From Candidatus Sulfotelmatobacter kueseliae (GTDB lineage: Bacteria; Acidobacteriota; Terriglobia; Terriglobales; Acidobacteriaceae), in the NCBI GenBank assembly GCA_900290255.1, contig OMOD01000122.1:14314-78313 (forward strand): a DNA stretch of 64,000 nucleotides, read 5' to 3'. The position numbers were made by a program, and so were the translations under genes. The stretch's first letter is position 1. The number at the start of each line of letters is the position of its first letter. The notes beneath the pieces were generated by a model. That model saw only the letters and a list, made by a program, of their open reading frames with translations, was not told where the DNA came from and searched no databases. Positions 27,679 to 55,654 of the stretch are shown piece by piece.

Positions 27679-29310
27679 ATGGTCATGACTGAACTTGAAA
27701 GGCCGAAGACGTTGATGGTGGCGGCCATCCGCATCAGCGATGTCGTAAGACAGTGGGCCGAGCACTTGCCCGACCACCCAGCGCTGGTCGAGAGCACGGG
27801 CACCTGGACGTATCGGCAACTGGCTTCCGCAGTCTCAGAGACTGAATCCTGGCTTCGCGAATTGAGCGTGCGTCCGGGCGATCGAGTCATGATCGTGGGC
27901 GAGAACTGCCGGGCTTTCGTGGCAATTCTCTTGGCTTCGGCAGGCATCGACGCGTGGCCCGTGCTGGTGAACGCCCGTCTCTCGGGGCGGGAGATTGACG
28001 AGATTCTGGATCACTGTGGTGCTCGTCGCGTCTTTTACACGGCAAGCGCATCGCCACATGCGGCAGACCATGCCAAGCGAAGCGGCGCGTCGTTCGAGGA
28101 GAGGAAAGGCTTTGGTTCGGTTGGTATTGGCCCCTTGCAGGAAAGCGTTGAGCCGGAGCCACTCGAGGCAAGCGTTTCCGATCGCGTCGCCGCTCTGATC
28201 TACACGTCGGGCACAACAGGGCTCCCGAAGGGCGTCATGTTATCCCACAGGAACCTCCTGTTTATGGCGGAAGGATCAGCCAAGATCCGATCCGTCAGTC
28301 CGGGCGACAGACTCTATGGCGTCCTCCCCTTGTCTCACGCCGTCGGCCTTTCCGTGGTGTTGTTAGGCGCGTTGGTTGCCGGCGCATCGGTGTATTTGAC
28401 GCCGCGGTTCGACCCGATGACGGCGCGGGTGACGCTGGAGAAGGAGCGCCTCACCTTGCTGTTGGGTACGCCCGCCATCTTTAACCAACTACTGCAATAC
28501 GCGAAGCTCAGAAAGATTTCGTCTCTGAAGTTTCCGGTACTCCGCATCATTTCATCTTCCGGAGCTCCGCTCGATCCCATTACCAAGTCGGGAATCGAGA
28601 GTCTTTTTGGCATGGTGCTGCACAACGGTTACGGTGTGACGGAATGTTCCCCCACGATTGCGCTGACGCGCCCGGAAGCACCTCGCACTGACACCTCAAT
28701 CGGAGCCGTTTTTCCCGGGGTAGAGGTAAAGTTCGTGGACAGCGACGGCCACGCGGTGGCTCCAGGTGCGGTCGGCGAGTTGCGAGTGCGTGGGCCCAAC
28801 GTTATGAAGGGATACTACCGAGCTCCGGAGGAGACAGGGTCTGCGATCGACGCCGAAGGATGGTTCAACACTCGCGACCTTGCGCGGCTGGAGGACGGGA
28901 ACCTCGTCATTGTGGGGAGGGCGAAGGATCTGATTATCCACAAGGGGTTCAACGTTTATCCAGCCGAAGTGGAGGCCGTACTCAATTCTCATCCAGCGGT
29001 GGTTCAATCTGCTGTCGTTGGTCGATCCGTTGAAGGGGACGAGGAGATTGTCGCTTTCGTTCAAACCTCGCCAGAAGCAGCTTTGACGCCCGTTGACGTG
29101 GCCAAGTACGCCGAACAACGCCTTGCTCGCTACAAGCGGCCGTCAAAAATCGTGATTCTGACGGAGATGCCGACGACCGCGACCGGGAAAATCGCAAAAG
29201 GAGTGCTCAAGAAAGTTGTTGAAGGCAGCGAATTCGAGGTAAAGATCGATGTCAAGTTTAAAATCAGCGAGCTCCACTTGACCGGTGAGAGCCCAGGAGG
29301 AAGAAACTAA
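27679..29310 (+). CDS. AMP-dependent synthetase/ligase (acyl-AMP / acyl-ACP ligase type)
   Basis: ALIYTSGTTGLPKGVMLSHRNL, NGYGVTE, WFNTRDLA, GKIAKGVL. Confidence 0.9.
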   Translation: MVMTELERPKTLMVAAIRISDVVRQWAEHLPDHPALVESTGTWTYRQLASAVSETESWLRELSVRPGDRVMIVGENCRAFVAILLASAGIDAWPVLVNARLSGREIDEILDHCGARRVFYTASASPHAADHAKRSGASFEERKGFGSVGIGPLQESVEPEPLEASVSDRVAALIYTSGTTGLPKGVMLSHRNLLFMAEGSAKIRSVSPGDRLYGVLPLSHAVGLSVVLLGALVAGASVYLTPRFDPMTARVTLEKERLTLLLGTPAIFNQLLQYAKLRKISSLKFPVLRIISSSGAPLDPITKSGIESLFGMVLHNGYGVTECSPTIALTRPEAPRTDTSIGAVFPGVEVKFVDSDGHAVAPGAVGELRVRGPNVMKGYYRAPEETGSAIDAEGWFNTRDLARLEDGNLVIVGRAKDLIIHKGFNVYPAEVEAVLNSHPAVVQSAVVGRSVEGDEEIVAFVQTSPEAALTPVDVAKYAEQRLARYKRPSKIVILTEMPTTATGKIAKGVLKKVVEGSEFEVKIDVKFKISELHLTGESPGGRN

Positions 29311-30563: not shown

Positions 30564-30592
30564 AACGGACGAGAAATCAGGACCGGGGAGAG

Positions 30593-31988: not shown

Positions 31989-32765
31989 CTAGCTCGGAGA
32001 ATTTTGGCCTGCCAGGAACCCGCCGTCGAGAACCATGCACTGGCCCGTCATGAAAGAGGCGCGATCCGAGCACATCCATACCACCGCCTCGGCCACTTCG
32101 GCCGGTCTTCCGAAACGGCCAACAGGATGGCAACTCAGAACATATTTGTGGACGTTGGGAGCCCCAAAGAGACGCTCGGACATAGACGTTTCGATCACTC
32201 CGGGGCAAACTGCGTTGATGCGAATTCCACTGCGTGCCATTTCCAGCGCGGTAGACTTCGTCAGCCCGATCACTCCATGTTTGCTCGCGCTATACGCTGC
32301 CGCCCCCGCAGACCCGACTAGGCCTGTAATCGAAGCCATGTTTACGATTGCTCCACCCTTACCCTGCTTCACCATCTGCTTAATTTCATACTTCAGGCAG
32401 AGCCAGGCACCCTTGAGATTGACTTGAATGGTCCGATCCCAATCTTCTTCGGATTGTCTGATGATCGGTGCCCAGACGCCTTCGATCCCTGCGTTATTGA
32501 AGGCTACGTCCAAGCGACCAAATCTCTCTACTGCTTTCTGGATGAGCGCTTCGACTTCGGAGGCTTTTGAGACATCGGCTTTTACGAATAGGCCCTCGCC
32601 TCCGGAGGCACGGATCAACTCGATCGTTTCCTCGCCTTCCGGCTCGCGTCGGCCCGCAATCACTACTTTTGCACCCGATTTCGCGAAAAGTACGGAGGTC
32701 TCACGGCCCACACCCGACGTCCCACCAGTGACGAGGCCGACCTTGCCTTCCAATTCTCTTGTCAT
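31989..32765 (-). CDS. Short-chain dehydrogenase/reductase (FabG/glucose-1-dehydrogenase-like)
   Basis: GKVGLVTGGTSGVGRET (TGxxxGxG), NNAG, YSASKHGVIGLTK (YxxxK), PGVIET. Confidence 0.9.
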   Translation of the reverse strand: MTRELEGKVGLVTGGTSGVGRETSVLFAKSGAKVVIAGRREPEGEETIELIRASGGEGLFVKADVSKASEVEALIQKAVERFGRLDVAFNNAGIEGVWAPIIRQSEEDWDRTIQVNLKGAWLCLKYEIKQMVKQGKGGAIVNMASITGLVGSAGAAAYSASKHGVIGLTKSTALEMARSGIRINAVCPGVIETSMSERLFGAPNVHKYVLSCHPVGRFGRPAEVAEAVVWMCSDRASFMTGQCMVLDGGFLAGQNSPS

Positions 32766-33344: not shown

Positions 33345-33382
33345 TAGGTGCAACGGCGTGTACAGCGCCGCGTCAAAGCAAT

Positions 33383-39613: not shown

Positions 39614-39689
39614 CTAAGCGCACGTGGGAGTCTTTCTGCATGATACCTTCTTGAATCCTCGGCAATACTTAAGCGCCTAAGTATCCTCA

Positions 39690-40766: not shown

Positions 40767-41018
40767 ATGGAAGAATTGTTGACCAAAGTGCGGACGGCCT
40801 TTCAATCAGCGTTCAGCATTGATCCGCAGACCGTTACTATTGACACTGTACCAAGCGACGTTCCGGCTTGGGACTCCATGGGACATGTCACGCTGGCTAG
40901 TAGCCTCGAACAAGCCTTCGGCTTGACTTTCGATGTAGACGACCTGATGGCGATGGAGGACGTGAAATCAATCTGCCGGGTCGTACAATCCAAGCTAGGT
41001 CAGGTTCAACGTGCGTAA
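40767..41018 (+). CDS. Acyl carrier protein
   Basis: 83 aa; DVPAWDSMGHVTLASSLEQAFGLTF contains the DSxx attachment motif. Confidence 0.8.
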   Translation: MEELLTKVRTAFQSAFSIDPQTVTIDTVPSDVPAWDSMGHVTLASSLEQAFGLTFDVDDLMAMEDVKSICRVVQSKLGQVQRA

Positions 41019-42507
41019 TGGTATTGAGGGGAACTTCGCGCGCTGTCTGGTTGAGCGTTTGGGAGAAACCTCCTGTTTGATTGACGCGGCAACTGGGCAG
41101 ACCGTTCCTAGTCATGATCTCCCCAATCTGATTGTCGGTTTCGCGGCCGGTCTCCGATCGGCCGGACTGGGGCCGGGTGACAGGATGTTGGTGGGTTGTC
41201 GCGTGAGTCCAGCCAGCACGTTGGCCTACCTCGGCGCCATGTACGCCGGAGTGGTACCCGTGCCGACAGAAGAGCGCCTGCTGTCCGCCTCCGGAGGTTT
41301 CCTGCTAGCTCAGTCGCAAGCTAAAGTCGTATGGACCGACAAAGGGACCAAGTGCGATTGGCTGAAGAGCCATAGCGTCTGTCACATCGAAGGAACTTTC
41401 GAGGCCTGTTCTCCCGACTCGCTCCCGCCGCACCCTTGCGCAGAGAATGATCTCGCCGTCTTGATGCCGACGTCAGGTTCTACAGGCGTGCCTAGGTTGG
41501 TCATGGTCGCTCATAGCAACTTGAAGTCCAATACGGAAGCGATCATTCGCAGCCAACGTCTAGGAACCGATGAAAGGGCCATGCTGATCATGCCGGTGAG
41601 TTATTGCTTCGGCGCCAGCGTGATGCACACTCACCTTTATCAAGGCGGCGGAGTCGTCTTTGATTCTCGGTTCATGTTTCCGGACAAGGTGCTGCACGCC
41701 ATCAACACCTATGGCTGCACGACGTTTGCTGGAGTTCCGGTCATTTACAACGTTTTGCTCCGGCGGTCGAATCTCAAGTCGATCCCCCTGCCTAGTCTGC
41801 GCCGTTTTCTTCAAGCCGGAGGTGCGCTTGCTCCTGAAAATGTGCGGGAGATGCGCCACATCGTACCCACCGCAGAATTTCTGGTCATGTATGGCCAGAC
41901 CGAAGCCACAGCACGGATTTCCTGTCTGCCCAAGGCTCGTTTACAGGAGAAGCTGGGGAGCGCGGGCATTCCACTGGACAATCTTGAGGTCCGCATCGTG
42001 GATGAGGAAGGACGGGAAGTACCGCAGGGGCAGATCGGGGAAATTCAAGTCCGAGGTCCGTCGGTGTGCTTCGGATACCTGGATGATCCCGAATCTACCG
42101 ACCGCAAGTTCGGCGGCGGCTGGCTTAAGACCGGCGATTTTGCCTGTTGCGATAAAGATGGATATCTTTGGATCAAAGGGCGCACGGACGAGTTCATCAA
42201 AATTCGTGGCGTTCGGGTAAGCGTTGGTGAAGTCGAGACCAAGGTGGCGGCCATGCCCGGCGTTAGCGAATGTGCGGCGGTGGCAGTGAAACATCCAGAG
42301 GCCGGTGAAGCCTTGGCGCTACTGATCGTTCCTGACAACAGCGCGACAGAGAGCGCGGTTGCTGAAAATCATGGGGATGACCTCGGCGATCGAATCCGGC
42401 GCGCACTTCCGCCGCACTGGACCTGCGCTTCCGTCAAGATAGTCGCTGAATTGCCGAGAACAACGAATGGCAAGATCGCCCGTTCTCAGTTGCAGACGTT
42501 GTTATGA
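41011..42507 (+). CDS. AMP-dependent synthetase/ligase
   Basis: VLMPTSGSTGVPRLVMVAHSNL, YGQTE, WLKTGDFA, GKIARSQL. GTG start overlaps the ACP stop. Confidence 0.9.
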   Translation: MRNGIEGNFARCLVERLGETSCLIDAATGQTVPSHDLPNLIVGFAAGLRSAGLGPGDRMLVGCRVSPASTLAYLGAMYAGVVPVPTEERLLSASGGFLLAQSQAKVVWTDKGTKCDWLKSHSVCHIEGTFEACSPDSLPPHPCAENDLAVLMPTSGSTGVPRLVMVAHSNLKSNTEAIIRSQRLGTDERAMLIMPVSYCFGASVMHTHLYQGGGVVFDSRFMFPDKVLHAINTYGCTTFAGVPVIYNVLLRRSNLKSIPLPSLRRFLQAGGALAPENVREMRHIVPTAEFLVMYGQTEATARISCLPKARLQEKLGSAGIPLDNLEVRIVDEEGREVPQGQIGEIQVRGPSVCFGYLDDPESTDRKFGGGWLKTGDFACCDKDGYLWIKGRTDEFIKIRGVRVSVGEVETKVAAMPGVSECAAVAVKHPEAGEALALLIVPDNSATESAVAENHGDDLGDRIRRALPPHWTCASVKIVAELPRTTNGKIARSQLQTLL

Positions 42508-43667
42508 GCCAACTGGCAGAGCCTCGGTTAGCAGAACTCGAGCAGGCTGTCGGAGCGTTGCTGGATAAGCCGCCATACGCGGTGCCTCCCAGCGAACGTC
42601 GCGAGGCCTTGCTTGCCCTGTTCAAGCAGGAACTGAGCTACGCCTGCGACCGCAGCCAGCAGTTCCGCAATTACGTGCGGCACTGGCCAATCAGCTTGTC
42701 GGCCGCAGATGCGGTTGCCGATCTTCCATATCTGCCGGTCAGTACGTTCAAGGCCAATCCACCGTTGAGCCTGGTCGAGACCCGCGACATCAAGCGTACT
42801 CTCTCCTCCAGCTCGACCAGTGGCCAGATTCCCAGCCGGGTGGTTCTGGACGCCGCCACAGGCCGGCGGATGACCAGGGGCGTGACGGCGATCATTCGCG
42901 ATTTCATCGGACCGGCGCGCAGGCCCTATCTGGTCATCGATATACCAGAGAACTTGAAACCACAGGTTGAGCTGGGTGCGCGAGGCGCTGCCATTCAAGG
43001 TCTTGGCTCTTTCGCCACGGAAACTGTGTGCTGCTTGCGCCGTGACGATGCAGCAGATTCGGTCCTCGAGCTGGAGAAGCTTCTTGCCTGCGCTGAGAAA
43101 TGGAGAGACAGCGCAGTCTTGGTGTATGGGTTCACGTATGTGATCTGGACCCAGTTCGTGCAGCCCCTGCAGCGCCAAGGCGTCACGCTGCGCATGCCCA
43201 ACGTCCACGTCCTACACAGCGGCGGATGGAAGCGGCTGGAGCAGCAGGCAGTGACGAAAGACGCGTTCATGCGCGGCGTGGCTTCGGTCTTTGCCTGCAG
43301 CGCAGACCGTGTCATCGATTACTACGGTATGGTGGAGAATGTGGGCGTCGTTTATCCAGATTGCGAGCACGGCCACAAGCATGTACCCACGTTCGCGGAG
43401 GTGATCATCCGCGATCCGCTGACACTCGCGCCCGTCGAAGCCGGGCAGCAAGGACTGGTTCAAGTCTGCAGCGTTCTGCCCACGAGTTTTCCCGGATTCC
43501 TGCTGCTGACCGACGACATGGCGGAACTGATCGGTCAGGATGGTTGCCCATGCGGACGGCGCGGCACGTATTTCCGCTTCACGCGGAGGGTGCCAAAGGT
43601 GGAGGTGCGAGGCTGCGGCAATCTGGAAACCACCCGCTCGCGGCAAGGGACAGGTGCGCATGAGTGA
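42504..43667 (+). CDS. LuxE-like acyl-protein synthetase family protein
   Basis: LPYLPVSTFKANPPLSLV, LSSSSTSGQIPSRVVLD, LHSGGWKRLE. The overall layout resembles the LuxE/F390-synthetase-like adenylate-forming family. ATGA overlap with the upstream gene. Confidence 0.7.
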   Translation: MSQLAEPRLAELEQAVGALLDKPPYAVPPSERREALLALFKQELSYACDRSQQFRNYVRHWPISLSAADAVADLPYLPVSTFKANPPLSLVETRDIKRTLSSSSTSGQIPSRVVLDAATGRRMTRGVTAIIRDFIGPARRPYLVIDIPENLKPQVELGARGAAIQGLGSFATETVCCLRRDDAADSVLELEKLLACAEKWRDSAVLVYGFTYVIWTQFVQPLQRQGVTLRMPNVHVLHSGGWKRLEQQAVTKDAFMRGVASVFACSADRVIDYYGMVENVGVVYPDCEHGHKHVPTFAEVIIRDPLTLAPVEAGQQGLVQVCSVLPTSFPGFLLLTDDMAELIGQDGCPCGRRGTYFRFTRRVPKVEVRGCGNLETTRSRQGTGAHE

Positions 43668-44916
43668 TGTGATCCATTCGATTACCTCACCTGAGGAGAT
43701 CAACCGCGCGGCGCGGCAACTGCGGGAAACCGCGCTCGAAGCGGATCTCAGCCCTGACGTGGTGCTTGAAGTTTTCGAGCGGTGGTCTGCTGCCTTGGAT
43801 GCGCCAGGCCTGCGCGACGTTCCTGGTGCGGCCTTTCTCCGTCTCTGGCTCCGGCGCGGCACGTTGCAGCCGATTTTGCTCCGCGAGCTGGGCCCAGAAT
43901 CACTTCATGGTGGATGGCGGGAGGAAGGGCATGCCCGGCTGAAAGCATTTCCTCTGGGAGTAGTCGGTCACTGGCCGGCCGGGAACATTGAGATCCAGCC
44001 CGTCCTGTCTCTCACGTGTGCCTTGCTCGGCGGGAATGGCTGCTTGGTGCGGGTACCGAGCGGGTTGGTCGAGACAACGCGCCTGATCTTGGAAAAGCTG
44101 CTAGAGGTTGATCAGGCGGGTCTATTGACCAAGCGCCTATTCCTAGCCAGCTTCGATCATGCACGCACCGATTTGCACGCGGCCATAGCGCAGACCGTAG
44201 ACGGCGCTATGATCTGGGGTGGTGCCGAGTCAGTCTCGGAGGTGCGAGCGTTGCCCTTTCCTCACTGGGCGCGCGTGGTGGTCTTTGGTCCACGGCTCTC
44301 GGTGGCGGCGATGGATGCGGGCGCATGGGGCTGCCGGAACGAGCGGCCGTCGTGGTGCCGGCGCATCGCACGCGACGTGTGGCAGTTTGAGCAGCAAGCC
44401 TGTTCCTCGCCGCAGACGTTGTTTCTCGAGCGCGGCGACGACTGCGATCCCGGCGAGTTTGTCGAAGATCTGAAGTGCGCTTTTCAGGAGGAGAACCGAG
44501 CACATCCGCGGCGGGAAATCGAACCGGCGTTGACCTCGGCAATCTGCCAGGCCCGCGCGTCCTGGCTCTTAGATGATGCCGCGAATCGTGCGTGGTTTCC
44601 CGGGTCGCCCGATTGGACGATCTTACTAGGGAAAGGAGTGGACATACCTGAGCCGACGCAAGGCCGAACGCTCAGCGTGCTGGTCGCGGAGGACCTTATG
44701 GAGGTGGTCTCGCGATTCGATGGGACCGTGCAGACGCTGGGGTTGGCGATCAAGGACGCGGCGCGGGAGGAAACGCTAGCTGCGGCTGCAGGACGTCACG
44801 GAGTGGACAGGGTGGTGCGGCTTGGCCAGATGCATGTTTTCGGCTCCCCGTGGGACGGGGTAGATTTGGTGCGGCCGATGGTGCGTCTGGTTCGGCATGT
44901 GTGTTCGCAGGATTAG
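43660..44916 (+). CDS. LuxC-like acyl-CoA/acyl-ACP reductase family protein
   Basis: ORF 43540..44916; ATG 43660 overlaps the upstream stop by 8 nt. FPLGVVGHWPAGNIEIQPVLSLTCALLGGNGCLVRVPSG and EQQACSSPQTLFL resemble the LuxC (aldehyde-dehydrogenase-like) family. Confidence 0.7.
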   Translation: MSDVIHSITSPEEINRAARQLRETALEADLSPDVVLEVFERWSAALDAPGLRDVPGAAFLRLWLRRGTLQPILLRELGPESLHGGWREEGHARLKAFPLGVVGHWPAGNIEIQPVLSLTCALLGGNGCLVRVPSGLVETTRLILEKLLEVDQAGLLTKRLFLASFDHARTDLHAAIAQTVDGAMIWGGAESVSEVRALPFPHWARVVVFGPRLSVAAMDAGAWGCRNERPSWCRRIARDVWQFEQQACSSPQTLFLERGDDCDPGEFVEDLKCAFQEENRAHPRREIEPALTSAICQARASWLLDDAANRAWFPGSPDWTILLGKGVDIPEPTQGRTLSVLVAEDLMEVVSRFDGTVQTLGLAIKDAAREETLAAAAGRHGVDRVVRLGQMHVFGSPWDGVDLVRPMVRLVRHVCSQD

Positions 44917-44940
44917 AGCTGGAGTGGGAGAGAAGTCCAG

Positions 44941-45840
44941 ATGAATCATGCAGAACTTTTCCTGGAAGCCTTGGATCGAAAGGCCAAGATCTTTGCCCCC
45001 AATGCCCGCGCCACATTCGAAGCCAACCGGGAGCTGTGCTCGTGGTTGCTGAGTCCGCTGGCACGGTGGGCTGAGGCAGCTTACGGGAGCAACGTATTTG
45101 ACGAGGCCGCACGCGGCTACGCCGAATATTGCTTCGGCGTGGCCAAGGCCAAGCAGGTTTACGAACGCGCCGGCAGATACACTCCCGAAGCCATGCCGGA
45201 AATCATGTCCGGGGTCTATGAGCATGAGGGCTACATGATTCCGTACATGTGGGCAGCAATTCTCATCTATCCGTTTTGGCCGTCGATGGTCAGCCATATT
45301 GCGCTATTCCGCGACGAGTTCGTGCGGCGGTTACCCCGAAATGCCAGTGTGCTCGAGCTGGCCTGTGGCCATGGCGTGTTAAGTCTTCTGGCTGCCGAGG
45401 AGCGCCCGGACATTCAGGTCGAAGGTACCGATATCAGCGCACCCGCCGTGGCCGTAGCCAATCGCCTGCTGGCTGTTTCCCGACACGCGGGCCGCGTTCG
45501 CTTCGCAGTCCAGGACGCACTGCAACCCGACAACCAAGGCGGGAACGGAAAATGCCAGGGCGTGATCTCCGCCATGCTGGCCGAGCACCTGATGGATCCA
45601 AAGCCGCTGTTTGCGACGATGGGGCGGCGCGTCGCGCCGGAAGGACTGGTATTCTTCAGTACAGCTCTGGAGTCGCCGCAGCGGGACCACGTGTTTGAAT
45701 ACAACCACGAGAGCCAGCCTCTGCAGATGGCCGAGATTGCTGGGCTGCGGGTGACCCGGCTCGTATCCGATGCCAGTGCAATACCCACCGGATCACGCTT
45801 CCTGCCCCGGGCCACGGCCATGATTCTGAAGTCTCGCTGA
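44941..45840 (+). CDS. Class I SAM-dependent methyltransferase
   Basis: VLELACGHGVLSLL (motif I), DISAPAV, a Rossmann-type layout. Confidence 0.75.
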   Translation: MNHAELFLEALDRKAKIFAPNARATFEANRELCSWLLSPLARWAEAAYGSNVFDEAARGYAEYCFGVAKAKQVYERAGRYTPEAMPEIMSGVYEHEGYMIPYMWAAILIYPFWPSMVSHIALFRDEFVRRLPRNASVLELACGHGVLSLLAAEERPDIQVEGTDISAPAVAVANRLLAVSRHAGRVRFAVQDALQPDNQGGNGKCQGVISAMLAEHLMDPKPLFATMGRRVAPEGLVFFSTALESPQRDHVFEYNHESQPLQMAEIAGLRVTRLVSDASAIPTGSRFLPRATAMILKSR

Positions 45841-46126: not shown

Positions 46127-47200
46127 GTGTACGGAACTGCTCCGCAGTTTGGCATCTATGGCGTGGCCACGGGCAGCGGCAACTCGGTGGGTGTGTACGG
46201 TAATGGCGTCGACGGCCTGCAGGGCGCCGGCACCATCCACGGCGTCTACGCCAACGGCACCCAATACGGCGTCACCTCCTTCACTTCTGCCGGCGTTGCG
46301 GGAATCTACGGGGTTTACGGAGGCGCAAGCGGAACCGGGCAGACCTGGCTTGATAACACAGGCACTGGCGGCGCCGTTTGGGCTGACACCATTAGCCCCA
46401 CCGGCGGTTACTTCATCCCCGCCTTGCTCGCCACGACCGACAATAACGAAGCAGCTGTCTTCGAGAACAATTCAAACGATTACGAAACGATCGACGTTTA
46501 CAACTATGGGAGCGGGGGCACCGGCAACGTCGTGCGCGCCGAGGGCAGCACGGGAAGTTGCACCCTCACCGGCGGCGGTGACACCGCCTGCACGGGCGTC
46601 CTGAAGTCCGTGGTTGCAACCAGCCAAGGTGCGCGGCGGGTCGAAACCTACTCTGTACAGTCATCGGAGAACTGGTTTGAAGATGCGGGCACGGCCCAGC
46701 TTGTCAATGGAGCCGGCCGCGTCAACCTGGAATCCGTCTTCGGGCAAACTGTGAATACCGGCGTCGAATATCACGTCTTCCTGACTCCGGACGGCGACTG
46801 CAAGGGGCTCTACGTCAGCGCCAAAACAGCGTCCGGTTTTGAGGTACACGAACTCGGCGGCGGCACTTCCAGTGTCGCATTCGAATACCGCATCATGGCC
46901 AAGCGCGTAGGTTATGAGAGCGTCCGCCTTGCGGACGTCACGGAGCGATTCAACCGACAAGAAGCACGAAGCAAGAACATGCGGCGACCTGCGCGGTCGT
47001 CAGCTGATCGGCGATCCAGTTCACGGATAACAACGCCGCCGCCAGTGCATCCAGTGGTCGAGCAACAACTGGCCCCGAAAATGCTGGTGCTGCCGGTTCT
47101 GGCATCGGCTGCGCCGCTGCCAGCGCCGGTAACGCCCAAGCTGACACCCACGCCGCCAGTCCGGGCTGCGCTGCAACCGATGGCTGCTCAACCCAAGTAA
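46127..47200 (+). CDS. Gly-rich GxYG-repeat protein with conserved C-terminal domain; no signal peptide, possibly 5'-truncated
   Basis: GTG start. Repeats GIYGV/VGVYGN/HGVYAN/GIYGVYGG are followed by ETYSVQSSENWFEDAGTAQLVNG...YHVFLTPDGDCKGLYV...FEYRIMAKRVGYE and a Pro/Ala-rich tail. Confidence 0.45.
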   Translation: MYGTAPQFGIYGVATGSGNSVGVYGNGVDGLQGAGTIHGVYANGTQYGVTSFTSAGVAGIYGVYGGASGTGQTWLDNTGTGGAVWADTISPTGGYFIPALLATTDNNEAAVFENNSNDYETIDVYNYGSGGTGNVVRAEGSTGSCTLTGGGDTACTGVLKSVVATSQGARRVETYSVQSSENWFEDAGTAQLVNGAGRVNLESVFGQTVNTGVEYHVFLTPDGDCKGLYVSAKTASGFEVHELGGGTSSVAFEYRIMAKRVGYESVRLADVTERFNRQEARSKNMRRPARSSADRRSSSRITTPPPVHPVVEQQLAPKMLVLPVLASAAPLPAPVTPKLTPTPPVRAALQPMAAQPK

Positions 47201-47575: not shown

Positions 47576-50500
47576 CTAGTCATCAAAGTTAAGGCACCAC
47601 TCTCCATCCAAACGTGATAGGCTGGCGTCCCCTCGAACTAGGAGTTCCAGAAGTTCGGGCTTGCGAGAGTGCGCGATTGTCCAGCCACCGCGGCCGCATG
47701 TGAAGAAACAATTTTTCTGCGATAAGGCGTCCATCAAGTGGATTGGAGCAGTCCCGTGGAGGCCGACCGCGCCTTGACTCCAGGCATCGTAGAAAAGATG
47801 GTCAAGAATGTCCTTGCCGAACCGGCTCTCACCACCGATCTGCACCGCTTGGGCCACATCGCCAATCTTCGGATAGTAGATATACCAGCCAACGACCTTC
47901 TGACGGTCATCACGAAGAACAATCTTCCGCAGTTCTGACCGGGGGTGCATCCGCTCCATGAACGTCAAGAGCCATTTCAGCGAATCGACTTCATAATCAG
48001 GCAGAATTGAATGGTCACTGCGGAATTTCGCTAAACAGTGAAGAAGCACTTCAACGTCTAGCTCTGCGGCCTGCAGATGAGACGGGATCGGACGTAAGGG
48101 GCTGAAGGGAAGTCTTGCACCGATGGCGTCCACGACGCTACAAAAGGGTCTTGCGGCAATCCTAAGGCTGGCGGAGAGCGTGGGCCCCGCTAACTTGGAC
48201 ATGGCGTGGGCAGCGTAATTCGTCAGCCGCAAGGGGCGTGCCCAGTGCATGCTCAAGGGCATAATAGTCCTGAAGCCCATTCGTTCCAGCAGACTCCTAG
48301 ATATATCGTTTGCTGAATCCGTCAACGAAATGTCCTGCTCTCCTGCCATGTACGCCGTCAGCAGACGCAAGCCAGCCAGCGAGGACCGCGCCTCCGGAGC
48401 AACCACAAAATTGCCACCAACGGCGATGCAAAGCGGCCGTCCGCGGAGAGACATTTTCCGTCGGACTACACCTAGGAAGCCTACAATTCTGCCGTTCTTG
48501 CCTTCATAAACACGGGAAGGCGTTCTCTCGTCGATCAAAGGACTCCTGAAATAAAGCTCCTCAAAATATGAGTGGAGTCCGGACGGAGGAGCGCCCTTGC
48601 CGTAACGCAGGAATTTCCACCACAGGTCCGCTACCTGCGGGATATCGTCGACAGCAAACGGGCGCAGACCCGGATCTTTCCGCGCCAACCCTAGCGAAGG
48701 CCCATCTTCCGCCTTCATACCCCGCCCGAGAACACTCGCCAGTTTTCGTGGGGTAGGGGCATCGTAAAGAGCCGCGAGCGGCGGGGTGCATCCTAACTCG
48801 CTTTGGATCAAGGCGAACAACTGCGCCGCAGCCACGGAGTGGCCGCCTAAAGCAAAAAAGTCGTCGTCTGGCCCAATCTCGCTGCCATTCAACACACGCT
48901 GCCAAAGCGGGATCAAGGATTGGACTAACGTGGCCTCCGACATCCCGGAGATGGTCGGCGTATCCGAGAATTGCTGTGGCGCCCCGGGTGTCGAGCCCAA
49001 AGCCGGCGACACGGATTGCCGCGTCATTTCTCGGTTTGGAATGCGTTTGTAAACGATCTCAGTGGCGGAAGCAGTCTCGCTCCACTTGAGCCGGGCTAGC
49101 TGCGTTACTTTCCGTGAAGGATCGGCCGCCAGCTCTTCAAAGATGGAGCCTAGCGTCACCAGCCATTCTCGTACGGTAAGATCCGCAAAGAGCTTGATGT
49201 CATAGTGGCAGTGCAACGCCAGGTTTTCTTCTGCCTCCACCACATTCAGATAAAGCTCGAACGATTCGAAAGCCTTGGGGTTGGCCTCGTAGTCGACGGC
49301 AAATCCGAATTGCGGTAACTCGTTTTGCTTGAACTTCTTGATGTTGGTAAGTCCAACCGAGATCGGGGAAATGCCAGGCGTAGGCGCAGCCGGGTGGAGA
49401 TCTTCCATCAAGCTCACCATTGTAAAGATGGCGTGCTCGTGAGCGGCGAGAAGATCGGCTTGTACGCGCTTTAGGAAAGCCTCCGCTGCTTCGCCTTCGC
49501 GTAACTCCACGGCAAAGGGAAGAAGGTTGACGCAGTGTCCGACGAGACCAGGCTGTCCGATAGACGGTTGTTCCGCAGTGGGCAGAGTGATCACAAAGCG
49601 ATGCTGCCGCGAGATGCGGGCTAGCAGAATGGCCAGAGAACTGAGCAGGACCGCGAAGAAGCTGCAGTTATGTTCGGCTCCCAGCGCTCTGAGATCGCGC
49701 ACTACCGAGGCTGAAATCGAGTGATCGAGACGGCGGGCGTTGAATTCACGCCGCGCACTCCGCGGGTGGTCTGTCGGAAGCACGAGCACGGGGAAACCAT
49801 CATGGAATTTCGCGTGCCAATAGTTGCCCGCTTGCTTGAATTCTGCGGAGCGCTCCCGCTCCGTTGTGTTCTTCACGTAATCGCCGTAACTGTCTGCGAG
49901 CTCTAGGTGCACAGGCGCACCTGAGAGTTCTTCCGAATAGAAGGCGCAGAGATCGTGGATCAGGACATCCAGCGACCAGCCATCGCAAATAATGTGGTGT
50001 GCCGTGATGATGACCGCAGCACGCTCGGCACCGAGCAAAACCATTTGGCAGCGGAACAGAGGGCCTGCGGGCAGAGGGAACGGCAATGCTGTTTCATCGG
50101 CAATCAGTTTGCGGAAACGTTGCTCTTGCCAGTCCGGTTCGTTGGCCGGAACCTGCATTGAGAGATCAGTCACCGGCATCGCGATCTTCAGGGCCGGGGC
50201 GATCTTCATCATCCTGCCAGTTTCGTCGAAACTGGTGCGTAGGGCGTCATGTCGTTCCACCAGACGTTCCATGGCGCCCATCATTTTCGCGACTGAGATC
50301 TTGCCGGTGAATCGCAGCGTCATGGATTCGTTGTAAGACGCCGACAAGCGCTCGGACAAACGCGAGGACGAGAAAATACCCCGCTGCGGAACCGTAGCTT
50401 CGATATCGCGTGGACTGGAACGCACGATGGCGGGCTTCGAACCATCTGTCGATAATTTCTGGACCACCGGCGTCTCATCTTCCGCGGCTATGCGATTTCC

Positions 50501-53500
50501 ACCGCCTTTCTCGAGAAGCGCAACCAGCCGGGCGATCGTGCGCGCTTGCTCGACAACCGCTTCTTCGAGCGTGCTGCCCTTGGACTGGATACTTGGCTGA
50601 GCATTCGTCCGGACGTCCGCAAGAGAGTTTGCGGTCGGAATAGGAGTGGCTTCGGCGAGAGCCTCGGCAGGCAGGGTCGAATCAAGATGCGCCGCCAACA
50701 TGTCAATGTTGGGGAACTGCTTCATGAGCTGACTGAAGCTGACCTTCACGGAGAACTCCTTTTGGACAGCGAAGGCGACCTGGGTTAACGACAGCGAGTC
50801 GAATCCCTGCTCCATGAACGTAGCGGAAGTGTCAATTTGCGAACGTTCGCGTCCGGAGACAGGTAAGAGCAGATCAATCACGCGCGCAGCGATGCGGTCC
50901 TTGCGCGAGCCTGCCCCGCGTCCCGACGTAACGGCCTCTGTGAGTGCAGACGGGAGAGCAGACGGCGCCACGGAGGGCTCGGTTGATGGCTCAACTCGGA
51001 CGCCAGCCGCCGCACTCGAACTCCTGTTCTCGGGATTTTGCGCAGTGGACGCCTCGGCGGGATCCACCCAGAACCGCTGCCGCTCAAACGGGTAGGTCGG
51101 CAATGGTATGCGATGACGCTCTTCGTTAGTGTAAAAGCCTTCCCACTCAATGGACACGCCATTCTGCCAGAGGGACCCCAGGGCAAAAAGCAGAGTAGCC
51201 CACTCGGTGTTGTTCTCCGCCGTGTCGGCAAACGTCGGGATCGCGGTACAAGGATGATCGGGCGTAAAGTGCTGGCGGGCCAATGCACACATTGTGGAAC
51301 GTGGTCCGCATTCCAGGAAAAAGTCGTGTCCTTGCTCCTTAAGGCATAGGATGGCTTTTGAAAACTCCACTGTAGCCCGAGCATGATTGGCCCAATACGC
51401 GGGATTGCTGGTCTCGGCGGCGGTAATGGAGCGTCCTGTTACCGTCGAGACAAAGGGCTTGGCCGGAGCACGCAAGCGGATTTTGGCAACGGCCTGGCGC
51501 AACGGCTCGATCATGGGATCCATCATCGCGGAGTGGAAGGCATGTGAGGTGTGCAGTTGGCGGCAGACAAAGTTTTCGGCCTCGAGTTGCTTCCGGAATT
51601 GCGCAATATTCTCTTCCGGCCCCGACACCACGCATAGAGCGGGAGCATTGTTGGACGCAAGCTGAAGTCCAGGCGGAAGAATCTTTGCAACCGATTCCGC
51701 GCTGCTGCTCACGGCCATCATGGAGCCACGCGGCAGTTCCTGCATCAAGCGTCCCCGCAGAGCGACAACGCTGAGTGCATCCTCGAGATCCCACACCCCG
51801 GCGAGCGTGGCAGCGACAAACTCTCCGATGCTATGTCCCGCCATCAGGGCAGGCTCGACGCCGAGGCTTTGCCAGAAGCGCGCCAGCGCGTATTCGATGA
51901 CAAAAATCGACGGCTGTGTGAAGAACGTGTCCCGCAATGATATCTGAGCCGTCTCTTCGTCTCCGCTCTGGGGATAAAGAAGTTCGCGCAAATCCCGGCC
52001 GAGATGCGGTTTAAGGCACTCGCAACAATCGTCAACGACTGCGCGAAAAAGCGGCTCGTCACGATAGAGGTTCAATCCCATGTTGACGTACTGCGTGCCC
52101 TGACCGCCGAAAAGGAAAACGATGGGTGGATCGCGACGCTCGCAGCGTTTGCTCCCGCAGCGTAACGGATTCGGTTGCAAGAGCAGCTTGGCGGCATCGC
52201 CGGAATCGGCGGCTACCACGAATCGCCGCTGCGCCAGCTGTTTGCGCCCGGTTTGGAAGGTGTAGGCCACATCGGCCAGATCTTCCGGTGCGCTCGCGAG
52301 ATGCTCGGCCAACGCCCGGCTGTAGGCATCAAGGGCTGCTGGACTCTTGGCTGAGAGCGGCAAGAGTTGCAGTGGGCGCGAAGGCCGCCCGCTCTTTGCC
52401 ACCGGCGCTTCTTCCAGGATGACGTGGACATTCGTCCCGCCAAAGCCAAACGAGCTGACCGCTGTGCGACGCACTCCCTTTCCACGAGGAAACGGGATGA
52501 GCTTGTCGGCCATGAGGAACGGGCTGCCACCGAAATCGATCTTGGGATTGGGTGTCTTGAAATGCAGGGTCGGAGGAATTTGCTCGCGATGGAGAACGAG
52601 GGCCGCTTTGATCAGGCCTGCAACTCCAGCGGCATTGGTGGGATGCCCGATGTTTCCTTTGATGGATCCGATATAACAGAAGTTCTTCTTGTCGGTCTTG
52701 TTCTCAAAAACTCTTCGCAGAGCTTCGAATTCAATCGGATCGCCGACCGGGGTGCCCGTACCGTGCGCCTCGATGTAGCCGATAGTCTCGACCGGGACGT
52801 TAGCATTTGCCTGCGCCAGGGCAATGGCCTCCGCTTGGCCGTCCACGCTCGGGGCCAGAAAAGAAGCGGGGCGGGCACCGTTGTTGTTCTTGCCGGTGCC
52901 GCGAATGACGGCATAAATGGTGTCGCCATCGGCTAGAGCTTCGGCATACCGCTTGAGGACGACCACGCCGGCGCCGTCGCAGAACATGGTTCCGGTAGCG
53001 TCAGCATCAAAAGGACGGCAGTGGCCATCTTTGGAGAACGTGCCTCCCTGCTGATATAGGAATCCGCTCCTCTGCGGCACCGTGATGTCGATGCCGCCCG
53101 AGAGTGCGATGTCACATTCGTAGTCGAGCAGTGAGTGGTAGGCTTCGTCGATAGTCAGGAGCGTAGTCGAACAGGCTGTATTGAGGCTGACCGCGGGTCC
53201 GCGAAGGTCCAGCAGATAAGCGGTGCGCAGGGCGATGTAGTCTTTTTGGTTGCCGTACTCAACGGCCAGCTTGCCGGCCATGGCCAACAAATCCGGTTGC
53301 GTCAAGAGGTTCGTGGTGTAGTAGTGATTGTCACCGATACCCGCGAACACTCCAATGCGCCCTTTATAGCGCTCGGGGTCGTACCCGGCGTTTTCCAGCG
53401 CCTGCTGCGCCAGTTCGAGAAAGATCCGCTGCTGCGGGTCCATGACCTTGGCTTCAAGCGGATTGATGCCAAAGAACGCGGCATCGAAGAGATCCGCGCC

Positions 53501-55654
53501 CTCGATCAAGCCGCGGGCCCGGATGTAATCGGGATCGCGGCGCAGATGGGGATCGATGCCAGGTCCCAGTTCTTCGGGTGTGAAAAAAGAGATCGATTCG
53601 ACGGCATTGCAGAGGTTGCGCCACAGCTGATCGAGATTGGCCGCTCCCGGGAAGCGGCCCGTCATACCGATCACCGCGACACCTTCCCGCAGAAGCCCGT
53701 CCTCGGTGGCCGGATTTCGTTCTGACTTGGGCTGCGGATTCCGCCGATGCCGCGCCCGCTCTTCAGCTTCGGCAACCAGATCGGACTTGCTCTCACTCTC
53801 TTCTAGGAACTCTGCGAGCTTCGCGATCGTGGGATACTGAAAGACCTTGACGGGAGGAATCTCGCGCCCAAAGCGCGTGTGATACTGATTCACCATACGG
53901 ACCGCTGCCAGCGAATTGCCGCCGAGATCGAAGAAGCTGTCATCAATTCCAACCTCTTCGAGTTGCAGCAGCTCGCACCAGAGACTTGCCAGTTGCCTTT
54001 CGGCTGCTGTGCGCGGAGCGATAAATTCCTGGGCGAGCAGCGGCCGTTTGCCCTCGGGCCGGGGCAGGGCTTTGCGATCAATCTTGGCGTTCGGAGTCAG
54101 AGGGAATTTCTCCAGACGCACGAAAACGGAAGGGATCATGTAGTCGGGAAGCGTAGTTTTGAGGAACTGAACGAGAGAGGTGGAACTCAGACCTTCGCGG
54201 CCCGTGTAATAGGCGGCTAGGCGTTTCTCTCCCGGACGGTCCTCGCGTAGGATCACGACGGCCTGGGCGATTCCTTCAACTTTGGCCAGCGAGCTTTCGA
54301 TCTCGCCCAGTTCGATGCGAAAGCCGTGGAGCTTCACCTGGTTGTCGAGACGCCCCAGAAATTCCAGTGAACCGTCGGGCCGATAGCGGACTTGGTCACC
54401 AGTACGGTAGAGCCGCTCACCCCGTCCCTCGCGGGTGGGATCGAGGACAAACCGTTCAGCCGTCCACTCGGGGGGGTTGAGATACCCACGAGCCAAACCC
54501 GCACCGCCAATCCAGAGCTCGCCGGGAGTCCCTTGGGAAACCGGTTTGTGGTTTTCATCGAGCAGGTGGAATTGCGTGTTGGCAATGGGTGTGCCGAGCG
54601 AGACCAGGTCGGGTGAGGTCACGCGCTCAGTCGAGGACCAGATCGTGGTCTCCGTCGGCCCATACATGTTCCAGAGTTCGCGGCAGCGAGGCAGCAATTG
54701 CCGAGCGATGTCCGCGGTCAGAGCCTCTCCCCCGCAAAAGACTCGCAGGTCACTCTTTCCTTCCCAGCCGTTTTCGAGAAGCATGCGCCAGGTCGCCGGC
54801 GTCGCCTGCATCACGGTGATCGCGTGTTGATGTAGCAGCGTCTGGAGTTCACGGGCGTCCGCAGCCTGTTCCGCAGTGGCGAGAACAATCTCGGCGCCGC
54901 AGACCAGCGGGAGCAGGAATTCCAGGAGCGAGATGTCAAAGGAACTCGTCGTGACCGCCAGGAGCCGATCGGAAGAAGCTATGCCCGGTGTTTCCGCCAT
55001 CGACAGCAAGAAATTGACCAGTGCCCGGCGCTGGATCATGACCCCCTTGGGTTTTCCCGTCGAGCCCGAAGTGTAAATCAGATAGGCGAGATGTTCGGGC
55101 TTTCCAGATGAGGCGAGGTTGGTCGCCGGCAGCCCGGCGATCGACTGATTCTCGACGTCGAGTGAAATAACTCGCGCAGCAGTTTCCGGCAGGCTCCCCC
55201 GCTTGGAAGAATGTGTCAGGAGAAGAGGGACTGCGGAGTCCGCCAGCATGAACGCCAGACGGTCGTTCGGAAACTTCGGATCCAGGGGCAGGTAAGTTCC
55301 GCCGGACTTGAGGATGGCAAAAAGGCTCACAACGGAAGCGAACGAACGGTCAAGATACACACCCACCACGCTCTCAGGACCGACTCCTTGCTGGCGAAGG
55401 AAGTGTGCTAGGCGGTTTGAGCGGGAATTCAGCTCCCGGTAGGAAATTCGTTCTGCACCCAGGGAGAGCGCGGGAGCGTCAGGCGTACGCTCGGCTTGCT
55501 CCTCAATCAGCTCGTGCGGGCCTCGCCGCAGGGGCGCAAAAGTTCTTGCGACACCACGAGTCAGTTTCCCGTGACCCGGGCCACTAGTCTTGGAGGGCGC
55601 TGTCGAACCACCATCCCGGACTGCAATTTCTTCGACATCACTGCGTAACTTCAT
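47576..55654 (-). CDS. Hybrid NRPS-PKS megasynthase, domain order A-T-KS-AT-T-C-T-(GNAT-like), 2692 aa
   Basis: Single uninterrupted ORF. The core motifs of every domain were located by eye (see the domain sub-features). Confidence 0.95.
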   Translation of the reverse strand: MKLRSDVEEIAVRDGGSTAPSKTSGPGHGKLTRGVARTFAPLRRGPHELIEEQAERTPDAPALSLGAERISYRELNSRSNRLAHFLRQQGVGPESVVGVYLDRSFASVVSLFAILKSGGTYLPLDPKFPNDRLAFMLADSAVPLLLTHSSKRGSLPETAARVISLDVENQSIAGLPATNLASSGKPEHLAYLIYTSGSTGKPKGVMIQRRALVNFLLSMAETPGIASSDRLLAVTTSSFDISLLEFLLPLVCGAEIVLATAEQAADARELQTLLHQHAITVMQATPATWRMLLENGWEGKSDLRVFCGGEALTADIARQLLPRCRELWNMYGPTETTIWSSTERVTSPDLVSLGTPIANTQFHLLDENHKPVSQGTPGELWIGGAGLARGYLNPPEWTAERFVLDPTREGRGERLYRTGDQVRYRPDGSLEFLGRLDNQVKLHGFRIELGEIESSLAKVEGIAQAVVILREDRPGEKRLAAYYTGREGLSSTSLVQFLKTTLPDYMIPSVFVRLEKFPLTPNAKIDRKALPRPEGKRPLLAQEFIAPRTAAERQLASLWCELLQLEEVGIDDSFFDLGGNSLAAVRMVNQYHTRFGREIPPVKVFQYPTIAKLAEFLEESESKSDLVAEAEERARHRRNPQPKSERNPATEDGLLREGVAVIGMTGRFPGAANLDQLWRNLCNAVESISFFTPEELGPGIDPHLRRDPDYIRARGLIEGADLFDAAFFGINPLEAKVMDPQQRIFLELAQQALENAGYDPERYKGRIGVFAGIGDNHYYTTNLLTQPDLLAMAGKLAVEYGNQKDYIALRTAYLLDLRGPAVSLNTACSTTLLTIDEAYHSLLDYECDIALSGGIDITVPQRSGFLYQQGGTFSKDGHCRPFDADATGTMFCDGAGVVVLKRYAEALADGDTIYAVIRGTGKNNNGARPASFLAPSVDGQAEAIALAQANANVPVETIGYIEAHGTGTPVGDPIEFEALRRVFENKTDKKNFCYIGSIKGNIGHPTNAAGVAGLIKAALVLHREQIPPTLHFKTPNPKIDFGGSPFLMADKLIPFPRGKGVRRTAVSSFGFGGTNVHVILEEAPVAKSGRPSRPLQLLPLSAKSPAALDAYSRALAEHLASAPEDLADVAYTFQTGRKQLAQRRFVVAADSGDAAKLLLQPNPLRCGSKRCERRDPPIVFLFGGQGTQYVNMGLNLYRDEPLFRAVVDDCCECLKPHLGRDLRELLYPQSGDEETAQISLRDTFFTQPSIFVIEYALARFWQSLGVEPALMAGHSIGEFVAATLAGVWDLEDALSVVALRGRLMQELPRGSMMAVSSSAESVAKILPPGLQLASNNAPALCVVSGPEENIAQFRKQLEAENFVCRQLHTSHAFHSAMMDPMIEPLRQAVAKIRLRAPAKPFVSTVTGRSITAAETSNPAYWANHARATVEFSKAILCLKEQGHDFFLECGPRSTMCALARQHFTPDHPCTAIPTFADTAENNTEWATLLFALGSLWQNGVSIEWEGFYTNEERHRIPLPTYPFERQRFWVDPAEASTAQNPENRSSSAAAGVRVEPSTEPSVAPSALPSALTEAVTSGRGAGSRKDRIAARVIDLLLPVSGRERSQIDTSATFMEQGFDSLSLTQVAFAVQKEFSVKVSFSQLMKQFPNIDMLAAHLDSTLPAEALAEATPIPTANSLADVRTNAQPSIQSKGSTLEEAVVEQARTIARLVALLEKGGGNRIAAEDETPVVQKLSTDGSKPAIVRSSPRDIEATVPQRGIFSSSRLSERLSASYNESMTLRFTGKISVAKMMGAMERLVERHDALRTSFDETGRMMKIAPALKIAMPVTDLSMQVPANEPDWQEQRFRKLIADETALPFPLPAGPLFRCQMVLLGAERAAVIITAHHIICDGWSLDVLIHDLCAFYSEELSGAPVHLELADSYGDYVKNTTERERSAEFKQAGNYWHAKFHDGFPVLVLPTDHPRSARREFNARRLDHSISASVVRDLRALGAEHNCSFFAVLLSSLAILLARISRQHRFVITLPTAEQPSIGQPGLVGHCVNLLPFAVELREGEAAEAFLKRVQADLLAAHEHAIFTMVSLMEDLHPAAPTPGISPISVGLTNIKKFKQNELPQFGFAVDYEANPKAFESFELYLNVVEAEENLALHCHYDIKLFADLTVREWLVTLGSIFEELAADPSRKVTQLARLKWSETASATEIVYKRIPNREMTRQSVSPALGSTPGAPQQFSDTPTISGMSEATLVQSLIPLWQRVLNGSEIGPDDDFFALGGHSVAAAQLFALIQSELGCTPPLAALYDAPTPRKLASVLGRGMKAEDGPSLGLARKDPGLRPFAVDDIPQVADLWWKFLRYGKGAPPSGLHSYFEELYFRSPLIDERTPSRVYEGKNGRIVGFLGVVRRKMSLRGRPLCIAVGGNFVVAPEARSSLAGLRLLTAYMAGEQDISLTDSANDISRSLLERMGFRTIMPLSMHWARPLRLTNYAAHAMSKLAGPTLSASLRIAARPFCSVVDAIGARLPFSPLRPIPSHLQAAELDVEVLLHCLAKFRSDHSILPDYEVDSLKWLLTFMERMHPRSELRKIVLRDDRQKVVGWYIYYPKIGDVAQAVQIGGESRFGKDILDHLFYDAWSQGAVGLHGTAPIHLMDALSQKNCFFTCGRGGWTIAHSRKPELLELLVRGDASLSRLDGEWCLNFDD
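47579..48682 (-). other. C-terminal ~370-aa tandem GNAT-like domain (paralogue of 25976-27310); not a TE or R domain
   Basis: No GxSxG or Rossmann motif. FVVAPEARSSLAGLRLL resembles GNAT motif A. Collinear similarity to the stand-alone 444-aa protein. Confidence 0.55.
48731..48943 (-). other. Peptidyl carrier domain T3 (Ser2273), no cognate A domain in cis
   Basis: DDFFALGGHSVAAAQL. Confidence 0.8.
49100..50413 (-). other. NRPS condensation domain
   Basis: HHIICDGWS (HHxxxDG at residues 1886-1892), preceded by ATVPQRGIFSSSRL and followed by YGDYV and LPTDHPR. Confidence 0.8.
50675..50902 (-). other. PKS-type acyl carrier domain T2 (Ser1620)
   Basis: FMEQGFDSLSLTQVAF. Confidence 0.8.
51215..52126 (-). 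other. Acyltransferase domain (Ser1275), malonyl-type HAFH motif
   Basis: FLFGGQGTQY, MAGHSIGEFVAA, LHTSHAFHSAMM. Confidence 0.85.
52409..53686 (-). other. Ketosynthase domain (Cys828, His964, His1004)
   Basis: VAVIGMTGRFPGA, SLNTACSTTLLTI, IEAHGTGTPVGDPIE, GSIKGNIGHPTNAAG, SSFGFGGTNVHVILEE. Confidence 0.9.
53801..54013 (-). other. Peptidyl carrier domain T1 (Ser581)
   Basis: DDSFFDLGGNSLAAVRM. Confidence 0.85.
54050..55522 (-). other. NRPS adenylation domain (residues ~45-535), predicted glycine-specific
   Basis: LAYLIYTSGSTGKPKGV, SSFDISLLE, NMYGPTETT, GELWIGGAGLARGY, YRTGD, PNAKIDR. Hand-extracted 10-residue code: D-I-L-Q-F-G-M-I-W-K. Confidence 0.85.

Follow-up and report, generated by a model that had tools for sequence, protein, structure and literature searches.

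A tandem-GNAT domain in the thioesterase position of a hybrid peptide-polyketide synthase from an acidobacterial polysaccharide locus

How does an assembly line let go of its product when it carries none of the usual release domains? The question is raised by a 64,000-nucleotide stretch of contig OMOD01000122.1 from Candidatus Sulfotelmatobacter kueseliae (Acidobacteriota), hereafter the window, in which a single open reading frame (ORF) encodes a 2692-residue hybrid nonribosomal peptide synthetase-polyketide synthase (NRPS-PKS) amid polysaccharide genes. A first-pass annotation had given its domain order as adenylation, thiolation, ketosynthase, acyltransferase, thiolation, condensation, thiolation and a tail X (A-T-KS-AT-T-C-T-X), with no recognisable release domain. 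We report that this tail, here called GN, is predicted to be a tandem-GNAT acyltransferase, that it occupies the place of the thioesterase (TE) of close relatives, and that it might, at roughly even probability, release the chain by passing it to an amine or hydroxyl.

Domain content of the synthase and fold of its tail

Pfam searches recovered the domain order that had been proposed, with E-values from 1e-7 to 1e-89 (Table 1), and a regular-expression check placed every motif located by hand at the residue claimed for it. The A domain combines AMP-binding PF00501 (residues 51-392, E 9e-89) with AMP-binding_C (451-524), scores 444 bits against the NCBIfam model TIGR01733 (cut-off 317), and carries LAYLIYTSGSTGKPKGV at 189-205, YGPTE at 331-335 and PNAKIDR at 521-527. 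The catalytic residues of the KS are intact (Cys828 in TACST, the His of EAHGTGT at 962-968 and that of NIGH at 1001-1004). The first and third carrier domains, T1 and T3, are 34-37% identical and both of peptidyl carrier protein (PCP) type (LGGxS); T2 is of acyl carrier protein (ACP) type. Pfam found no ketoreductase (KR), dehydratase (DH), enoylreductase (ER), Thioesterase or NAD_binding_4 match in the synthase, no starter C domain before the A domain and no second A domain in cis for T3; the lack of reductive domains and of the second A domain had been reported before, correctly. The protein has every defining feature of a hybrid NRPS-PKS that we tested except a canonical release domain, and with its catalytic motifs intact it is probably functional.

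The usual terminal release domains (TE, reductase or terminal C) are absent by both Pfam and NCBIfam, with PF00975 and NAD_binding_4 unmatched, in agreement with the earlier reading of the tail. A GPSLG at residues 2318-2322 was considered as a cryptic TE nucleophile and rejected: it sits in a 27-residue linker, without a hydrolase fold or a Pfam match, and is a chance GxSxG. The tail itself (~355 residues) has no NCBIfam match, and its Pfam signals are GNAT models below threshold: Acetyltransf_7 (19.3 against a threshold of 27, E 0.0015), Acetyltransf_1 (16.8 against 20.7) and Acetyltransf_9 (13.1 against 25). No FemAB or Acetyltransf_6 match was found in it with Pfam.

Structure was more telling. 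The tail sequence matched no chain of the PDB significantly, and its profile gave AAC(2') N-acetyltransferases at a marginal E of 0.02, which is no more than consistent with a GNAT. An AlphaFold (AF2) model based on an alignment of 35 GN family members (pLDDT 87.5, pTM 0.85) consists of two successive alpha/beta GNAT-like halves. Foldseek aligned it over its full length with N-myristoyltransferases (NMTs; E ~1e-14, TM ~0.53, ~375 columns), viral NMTs agreeing, and with the Eis-like acetyltransferase 3n7z (TM 0.57). As modelled, the tail is a tandem-GNAT acyltransferase fold of the NMT/Eis kind. Like GN, these enzymes are two-GNAT pseudo-dimers of ~360-400 aa (TM 0.53-0.57). They share only ~10% sequence identity with it and use acyl-CoA, whereas GN is tied genomically to carrier proteins. 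The earlier statement that there is no recognisable release domain holds for canonical ones; the tail is recognisable as a tandem GNAT by its structure and homologues, and is better described as a non-canonical candidate release domain.

A homologue search returned 579 GN relatives, the best 120 of which are all free-standing proteins of ~343-426 aa, 55-71% identical to the query and either unnamed or, in a few sources, called GNAT. Precomputed PF00583 or PF13527 matches are present in some homologues. An exhaustive profile search extended the family to 2,166 clusters at 50% identity (1,015 at E <= 1e-30), nearly all free-standing and ~360-364 aa long. The GN family is thus large, and no Pfam or NCBIfam model covers it above threshold. 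The GN of the window retains all 38 of the 38 invariant family residues, among them T2445-D-S2447, H2619, C2649 and R2681-L-D-G2684. The place of the Q/R-x-x-G-x-G/A pyrophosphate-binding motif is taken by R-S-S-L-A-G (~2423-2428), conserved at the Arg and the last Gly but not at the middle Gly. Elsewhere GN lies N-terminal to an ATP-grasp domain (P0271, 801 aa) or to a FemAB-like Acetyltransf_6 domain (P0272, 761 aa), fusions whose domain content appears to link the family to amide-forming or peptide-adding enzymes. Stand-alone GN genes often come as 2-3 tandem paralogues (L001:8774-12456, L036:10016-13584, L030, L034, L038, L049), and the contig CAWIQL010000001.1 of a metagenome-assembled genome (MAG) has five GN copies, one of them fused to a synthase.

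The terminal domain across Acidobacteriota

With the C-T3-tail segment as query, the closest orthologues of the synthase, from Terriglobales MAGs, are 60-77% identical in the C-T region and end in Thioesterase PF00975 at the same position. Such A-T-KS-AT-T-C-T-TE proteins are common across Terriglobales. Those compared with the window (L005, P0122-P0131) resemble it in domain order up to T3, in identity per domain (77-91%, as in L005), in having a VanZ/LamG neighbour and in their polysaccharide context; they differ from it in carrying a Cys-nucleophile thioesterase (GYCLGG) in the place of GN and, for some of them, in being split into two proteins followed by a phosphopantetheinyl transferase (PPTase) gene. 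In L005 the split separates A-T-KS-AT from T-C-T-TE, with the PPTase gene after them and genes for VanZ/LamG, FemAB-like and GT4 proteins before. Most TE-type orthologues (L005:10001-13015; P0122-P0180) have the Cys nucleophile (GYCLGG / GxCxG), and a motif search found no nucleophile motif in the thioesterases of seven. Cys thioesterases are rare and known from the beta-lactone- and beta-lactam-forming NRPSs ObiF and SulM (PMC6668435, PMC11298585).

A scan at one genome per species yielded 77 loci with GN relatives, nearly all in Acidobacteriota. Reading-frame analysis placed GN in frame with 2,370-2,464 upstream residues in six of them (L012, L014, L017, L018, L020, L046). It is fused also in L068, and in L009 and the second L013 copy (L013b), where a contig end cuts the fused gene; all remaining loci of the scan have stand-alone GN genes. 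Counting these together, nine other species-level genomes of Acidobacteriota carry the T-GNAT fusion in frame, as does one metagenomic protein, the fragment P0121 (T-C-T-linker-GN). The ending remains unusual, as had been said of the whole architecture, but it is not a one-off: TE-type orthologues are common, at least nine other genomes have the form that ends in a GNAT, and the synthase is a member of a gene family conserved in Acidobacteriota whose C-terminus takes one of two forms.

The linkers between T and GN carry the trace of this alternation. In the other fused proteins they are 101-138 aa long, align with the first ~98 residues of the thioesterase and end just before its GYCLGG nucleophile. 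BlastP against the L005 thioesterase gave E-values of 2e-12 (L009), 2e-13 (L013b), 9e-14 (P0121), 3e-6 (L012), 9e-5 (L018) and 4e-5 (L046); on this alignment, the linkers of these six proteins (five genomes and P0121) are the decayed N-terminus of a thioesterase. In the window, the ~10 residues that open the linker (KAEDGPSLGL) match the T-TE junction of the TE-type orthologues; beyond them the homology passes to GN, whose N-terminus is the start point of the stand-alone proteins (M-x-V-R-P-F). The thioesterase remnants in the linkers, together with the position that GN shares with the TE of the orthologues, show that GN replaced an ancestral C-terminal thioesterase. A neighbour-joining (NJ) tree of the C-T3 region, drawn without support values, nests the window among TE-type proteins and puts L013b and the main fused clade elsewhere. 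The separation of the window from the other fused proteins suggests that the replacement happened more than once, or that the 3' end recombined, as would be expected of interchangeable termini.

With a hidden Markov model for carrier proteins, an ORF of this kind was detected no more than 3 kb from GN in 49 of 76 loci. Often, and in several phyla, the carrier gene is directly upstream; the distance is 8-90 nt in Blastocatellia, Rokubacteria, Eisenbacteria and Thermoanaerobaculia. Adenylating enzymes are found within 10 kb in 59 of 80 loci. A cassette encoding a ligase, LuxE, LuxC and a methyltransferase is syntenic with GN in ~29 loci, and a stand-alone A-T / P450 / C set is present in 13. In L059 the order is GT4, GT2, polysaccharide deacetylase, ACP, AMP-ligase, short-chain dehydrogenase/reductase (SDR), GN, GT2 and Asn-synthase; in L066 it is FemAB-like, GNAT, luciferase-like monooxygenase, AMP-binding, carbamoyltransferase, ACP and GN. 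The conserved pairing of ACP and GN genes and the fusion of T3 to GN agree in suggesting that GN acts on a phosphopantetheine-tethered substrate.

The window has such a cassette, beginning with a free-standing ACP gene, and relatives of it continue into a stand-alone GN gene. In L004 an ACP closely matching that of the window (L004:9474-9734) is directly upstream of the closest stand-alone GN (69% identical); transposase genes flank it, and the locus looks rearranged.

Proposed chain release and its alternatives

The substrates can be predicted from the domains. HAFH, found in the AT, is typical of malonyl-CoA-specific AT domains. The specificity code of the A domain, read by motif anchors with the GrsA numbering, is DILQFGMIWK. 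It departs from the glycine code DILQLGMIWK at position 299 only, and 299 is among the three positions at which Gly codes vary (PMC12283262). A chain of glycine and malonate is therefore predicted. The A domain would load glycine onto T1, and KS and AT would extend Gly-S-T1 with malonate to 4-amino-3-oxobutanoyl-S-T2. Its beta-keto group may be retained, as the first-pass annotation expected, although trans-acting SDRs are encoded in the window (31989..32765). The C domain would then condense this intermediate with an amino acid on T3. The first-pass annotation had seen no second A domain to charge T3, which is right in cis; T3 has a core of PCP type (LGGHS) and could be loaded in trans, as in the A-less Cy-PCP module of yersiniabactin HMWP1. 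Candidate loaders are the Gly-type A domain of the synthase itself and the ligases at 27679..29310 and 41011..42507.

The last step would fall to GN. Tethered beside T3, it would take the T3 thioester as donor and free the chain onto an acceptor amine or hydroxyl. Its likeliest acceptor, and the weakest step of the scheme, would be a cytoplasmic nucleotide-sugar or lipid-linked repeat unit of the surrounding exopolysaccharide, possibly on a sugar freed by the polysaccharide deacetylase at 10063..10815; the synthase protein is cytoplasmic and encoded inside a Wzx-type polysaccharide locus that includes this deacetylase. Given the replacement of the thioesterase and the synteny with carrier proteins, we give about even odds to this reading, in which the chain leaves T3 for an amine or hydroxyl that probably belongs to a glycan intermediate in the cytoplasm.

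The proposed step has counterparts elsewhere. BtrH, of butirosin biosynthesis, handles a 4-aminobutyrate derivative and an aminoglycoside amine as acceptor. The aminoacyl chain that it transfers is bound to a carrier protein and is joined to the acceptor by an amide bond (PMC7183216). This carrier-protein-to-amino-sugar transacylation is a precedent for the proposed GN step; unlike GN, BtrH has a papain-like Cys-His fold (PF14399) and is free-standing, not the terminal domain of an assembly line. The TE of Pks13 off-loads a PKS product onto trehalose, and in Nod factor synthesis NodB deacetylates a GlcNAc residue before NodA moves an ACP-related acyl chain (NodF) to the freed amine. The deacetylase-ACP-ligase-GN series of L059 follows the same logic. 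The folds differ, in the Pks13 TE (an alpha/beta-hydrolase performing O-acyl transfer) as in NodA, and neither is a GNAT fused to an NRPS T domain. A literature search found no description of a C-terminal tandem GNAT in NRPS or PKS chain release and nothing relevant on carrier-dependent sugar acylation by GNATs.

Several observations weigh against release by GN. Its TE position is suggestive of such a role and is not proof of it. Most characterised GNATs take acyl-CoA as donor, and the CoA/pantetheine-binding motif of this one is canonical in part only. In an NJ tree, again without support values, its clade mixes fused members with stand-alone ones that trail the ACP-ligase-LuxE-LuxC cassette, so the window GN might serve the cassette ACP and not T3.

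The clustering with cassette-associated GNs also favours a tailoring role, in which GN would N-acylate the glycine-derived amine on T1, T2 or T3 while the chain is on the line and would take no part in release. The acyl donor could be acyl-CoA, an acyl group on the ACP of the cassette, or an aminoacyl-tRNA, as used by the Fem-like enzyme PacB, and the acylation would also block spontaneous lactamisation of the gamma-amino-beta-ketoacyl thioester. There is no starter C domain before the A domain, the cassette normally has a GN gene of its own and that of the window has none, and the fold resembles that of NMT, an acylator of N-terminal glycine. Yet deletion of the thioesterase would then leave the assembly line without a release function. 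No GN lies within 10 kb of TE-type orthologues such as L005, which implies that the conserved pathway does without N-acylation by GN, and the FemAB or Acetyltransf_6 match expected of a Fem/PacB-type enzyme is missing from the tail. We consider tailoring unlikely, though still a serious contender. Rather unlikely, in our view, is that GN frees a small metabolite unrelated to the polysaccharide, the acceptor being a small amine, an amino acid, water or the chain's own amine (cyclisation). The tailoring enzymes encoded at 22-35 kb (two flavin N-monooxygenases, a pyridoxal phosphate (PLP) enzyme, a homoserine acyltransferase, an ATP-grasp enzyme and a P450) would suit such a product, as would the suggestion of an inserted island in the higher GC content of 42-56 kb and the rmlB truncated at its junction. 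Against it, in unrelated genomes GN and both forms of the synthase recur beside glycosyltransferase, deacetylase, FemAB-like and flippase genes, and GN is fused to FemAB-like and ATP-grasp domains.

GN could also load T3 from acyl-CoA. Carrier-charging GNAT domains are known in PKS loading modules, those of CurA-type modules resemble GN in being GNAT-superfamily domains beside a carrier domain, and T3 has no A domain in cis. But the TE-type orthologues likewise have no cis A domain for T3 and no GN either, which makes T3 loading independent of GN. The CurA-type domain is a single GNAT, placed N-terminally, upstream of its ACP (GNAT-ACP), which decarboxylates and loads malonyl, whereas GN is a tandem fold at the C-terminus, after T3 (T-GN) and in the thioesterase position; moreover, the acceptor of a C domain must offer an amine nucleophile. 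Loading of T3 is thus very unlikely. The decaying thioesterase remnants in the linkers of its relatives might suggest that the fusion is a relic without function or an artefact of assembly. But at least nine further species-level genomes and a metagenomic protein share the in-frame fusion, and the invariant GN residues and the synthase catalytic motifs are all intact, which makes this explanation extremely improbable.

Release by GN can be extended from the fused domain to the family: GN proteins would form a new class of carrier-protein-dependent transacylases that graft thiotemplated acyl or aminoacyl chains onto sugar amines of exopolysaccharide precursors, and the GN fused in place of the thioesterase would make the synthase product a covalent substituent of the polymer. 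We put this wider proposal forward tentatively, with a chance of being correct that lies clearly below even.

The surrounding locus and its significance

The polysaccharide setting described by the first-pass annotation is evident from the flanking genes, which encode a priming sugar transferase, DUF354 and FemAB-like proteins, GT2, GT4 and WbsX glycosyltransferases, a polysaccharide deacetylase, a Wzx-type flippase, UDP-GlcNAc 2-epimerase, RmlA, RmlC, RmlD and UDP-glucose dehydrogenase (Table 1). A second GN copy and a PPTase gene were sought in the window, and neither was found.

Table 1. Features of the synthase and of its locus, in window coordinates (res, residues of the synthase)
Feature	Position	Strand	Basis or remark
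Megasynthase ORF, 2692 aa, A-T-KS-AT-T-C-T-tandem GNAT	47576..55654	-	ATG start
Adenylation domain, res 51-524	54083..55504	-	Pfam; specificity code glycine-like
T1, PCP type, LGGNS, Ser581	53804..53995	-	PP-binding 554-617
Ketosynthase	52559..53686	-	ketoacyl-synt N + C, 657-1032
KS-AT linker, res 1035-1158	52181..52552	-	KAsynt_C_assoc, CurL-like and RhiE-like linker models
Acyltransferase, res 1179-1480	51215..52120	-	Acyl_transf_1; GHSIGE Ser1275, HAFH 1371-1374
T2, ACP type, GFDSL, Ser1620	50675..50872	-	PP-binding ~1595-1660
Condensation domain, res 1752-2190	49085..50401	-	PF00668 E 5e-66; HHIICDG intact 1886-1892
T3, PCP type, FFALGGHS, Ser2273	48719..48919	-	PP-binding ~2246-2312
T3-GN linker, ~25-27 aa	48644..48718	-	alignment with TE-type orthologues
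Tandem-GNAT domain GN (predicted), res ~2338-2692	47579..48643	-	AlphaFold, Foldseek, homologue search
Free-standing acyl carrier protein, 83 aa, WDSMGH motif	40767..41018	+	first cassette gene
Cassette, convergent to synthase	41011..45840	+	adenylating ligase, LuxE-like, LuxC-like, methyltransferase
Adenylating ligase	41011-42507	+	
LuxE-like	42504-43667	+	
LuxC-like	43540-44916	+	
Methyltransferase	44941-45840	+	
Polysaccharide deacetylase	10063..10815	+	candidate source of free sugar amine acceptor; analogy with L059
FemAB-like gene	6484..7635		

The cassette has a parallel in the flagellar glycosylation islands of Aeromonas, which combine ACP, AMP-dependent synthetase, LuxE and LuxC genes with or without a 3-oxoacyl-ACP reductase (PMC7874193). 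There, too, the gene set lies in a glycan locus and its role is uncharacterised; it belongs to a different taxon and, unlike the window, is reported with neither a GN gene nor an NRPS-PKS (PMC7874193). Two models of the XrtA/PEP-CTERM system scored below their NCBIfam cut-offs, the TIGR03098 ligase at 218-244 bits (cut-off 592) and the TIGR03019 FemAB at 131 (cut-off 260), and a PEP-CTERM protein was seen in one related locus only (L001).

Between cassette and synthase lies a 357-aa ORF (46127..47200, plus strand), rich in Gly, Thr and Ser with a proline-rich C-terminus, which holds the place of the FabA-like hotdog gene and stand-alone GN of the relatives. It was considered as a stand-alone GN paralogue and rejected, as it has no similarity to GN; it has no Pfam match and no relative in the 82 loci fetched. 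On the other side, the synthase adjoins a gene for a VanZ and Laminin_G_3 (LamG) protein (56571-57719, plus strand) that is kept in TE-type and GN-type loci alike (L005, L009, L012, L019, L046) at 32-51% identity.

Of rmlB, on the minus strand, a remnant that lacks the 5' end is left (~39032-39650), with in-frame stop codons before it and ~1 kb without a convincing gene after it, and the GC content rises from ~0.54-0.56 in the flanks to 0.59-0.61 across 42-56 kb. Because of this truncation at the junction and the rise in GC, the block formed by the ACP cassette and the synthase may have been inserted or rearranged. The tailoring block at 22259-34778 encodes two flavin N-monooxygenase-like proteins, a Cys/Met PLP enzyme, a homoserine O-acyltransferase, a 444-aa ORF, an acyl-CoA-ligase-like protein, an ATP-grasp enzyme, an SDR and a P450. 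The P450s encoded directly beside the fused synthases of L012 and L046 share 83-88% identity with this last one.

Chain release decides the product of an assembly line, and a GN that repeatedly displaced a TE would be a new type of off-loading domain. If this is true, it would offer a first clue to the function of a family that exceeds 2,000 sequence clusters and has no Pfam or NCBIfam model, and would help explain the carrier proteins, adenylating enzymes and Lux-like genes that abound in the polysaccharide loci of Acidobacteriota. Such loci may write peptide- or polyketide-like decorations onto exopolysaccharides, polymers that are important for soil aggregation and desiccation tolerance. 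Release by GN would then be an unrecognised route from NRPS/PKS chemistry to the structure of capsules and exopolysaccharides in these abundant soil bacteria.

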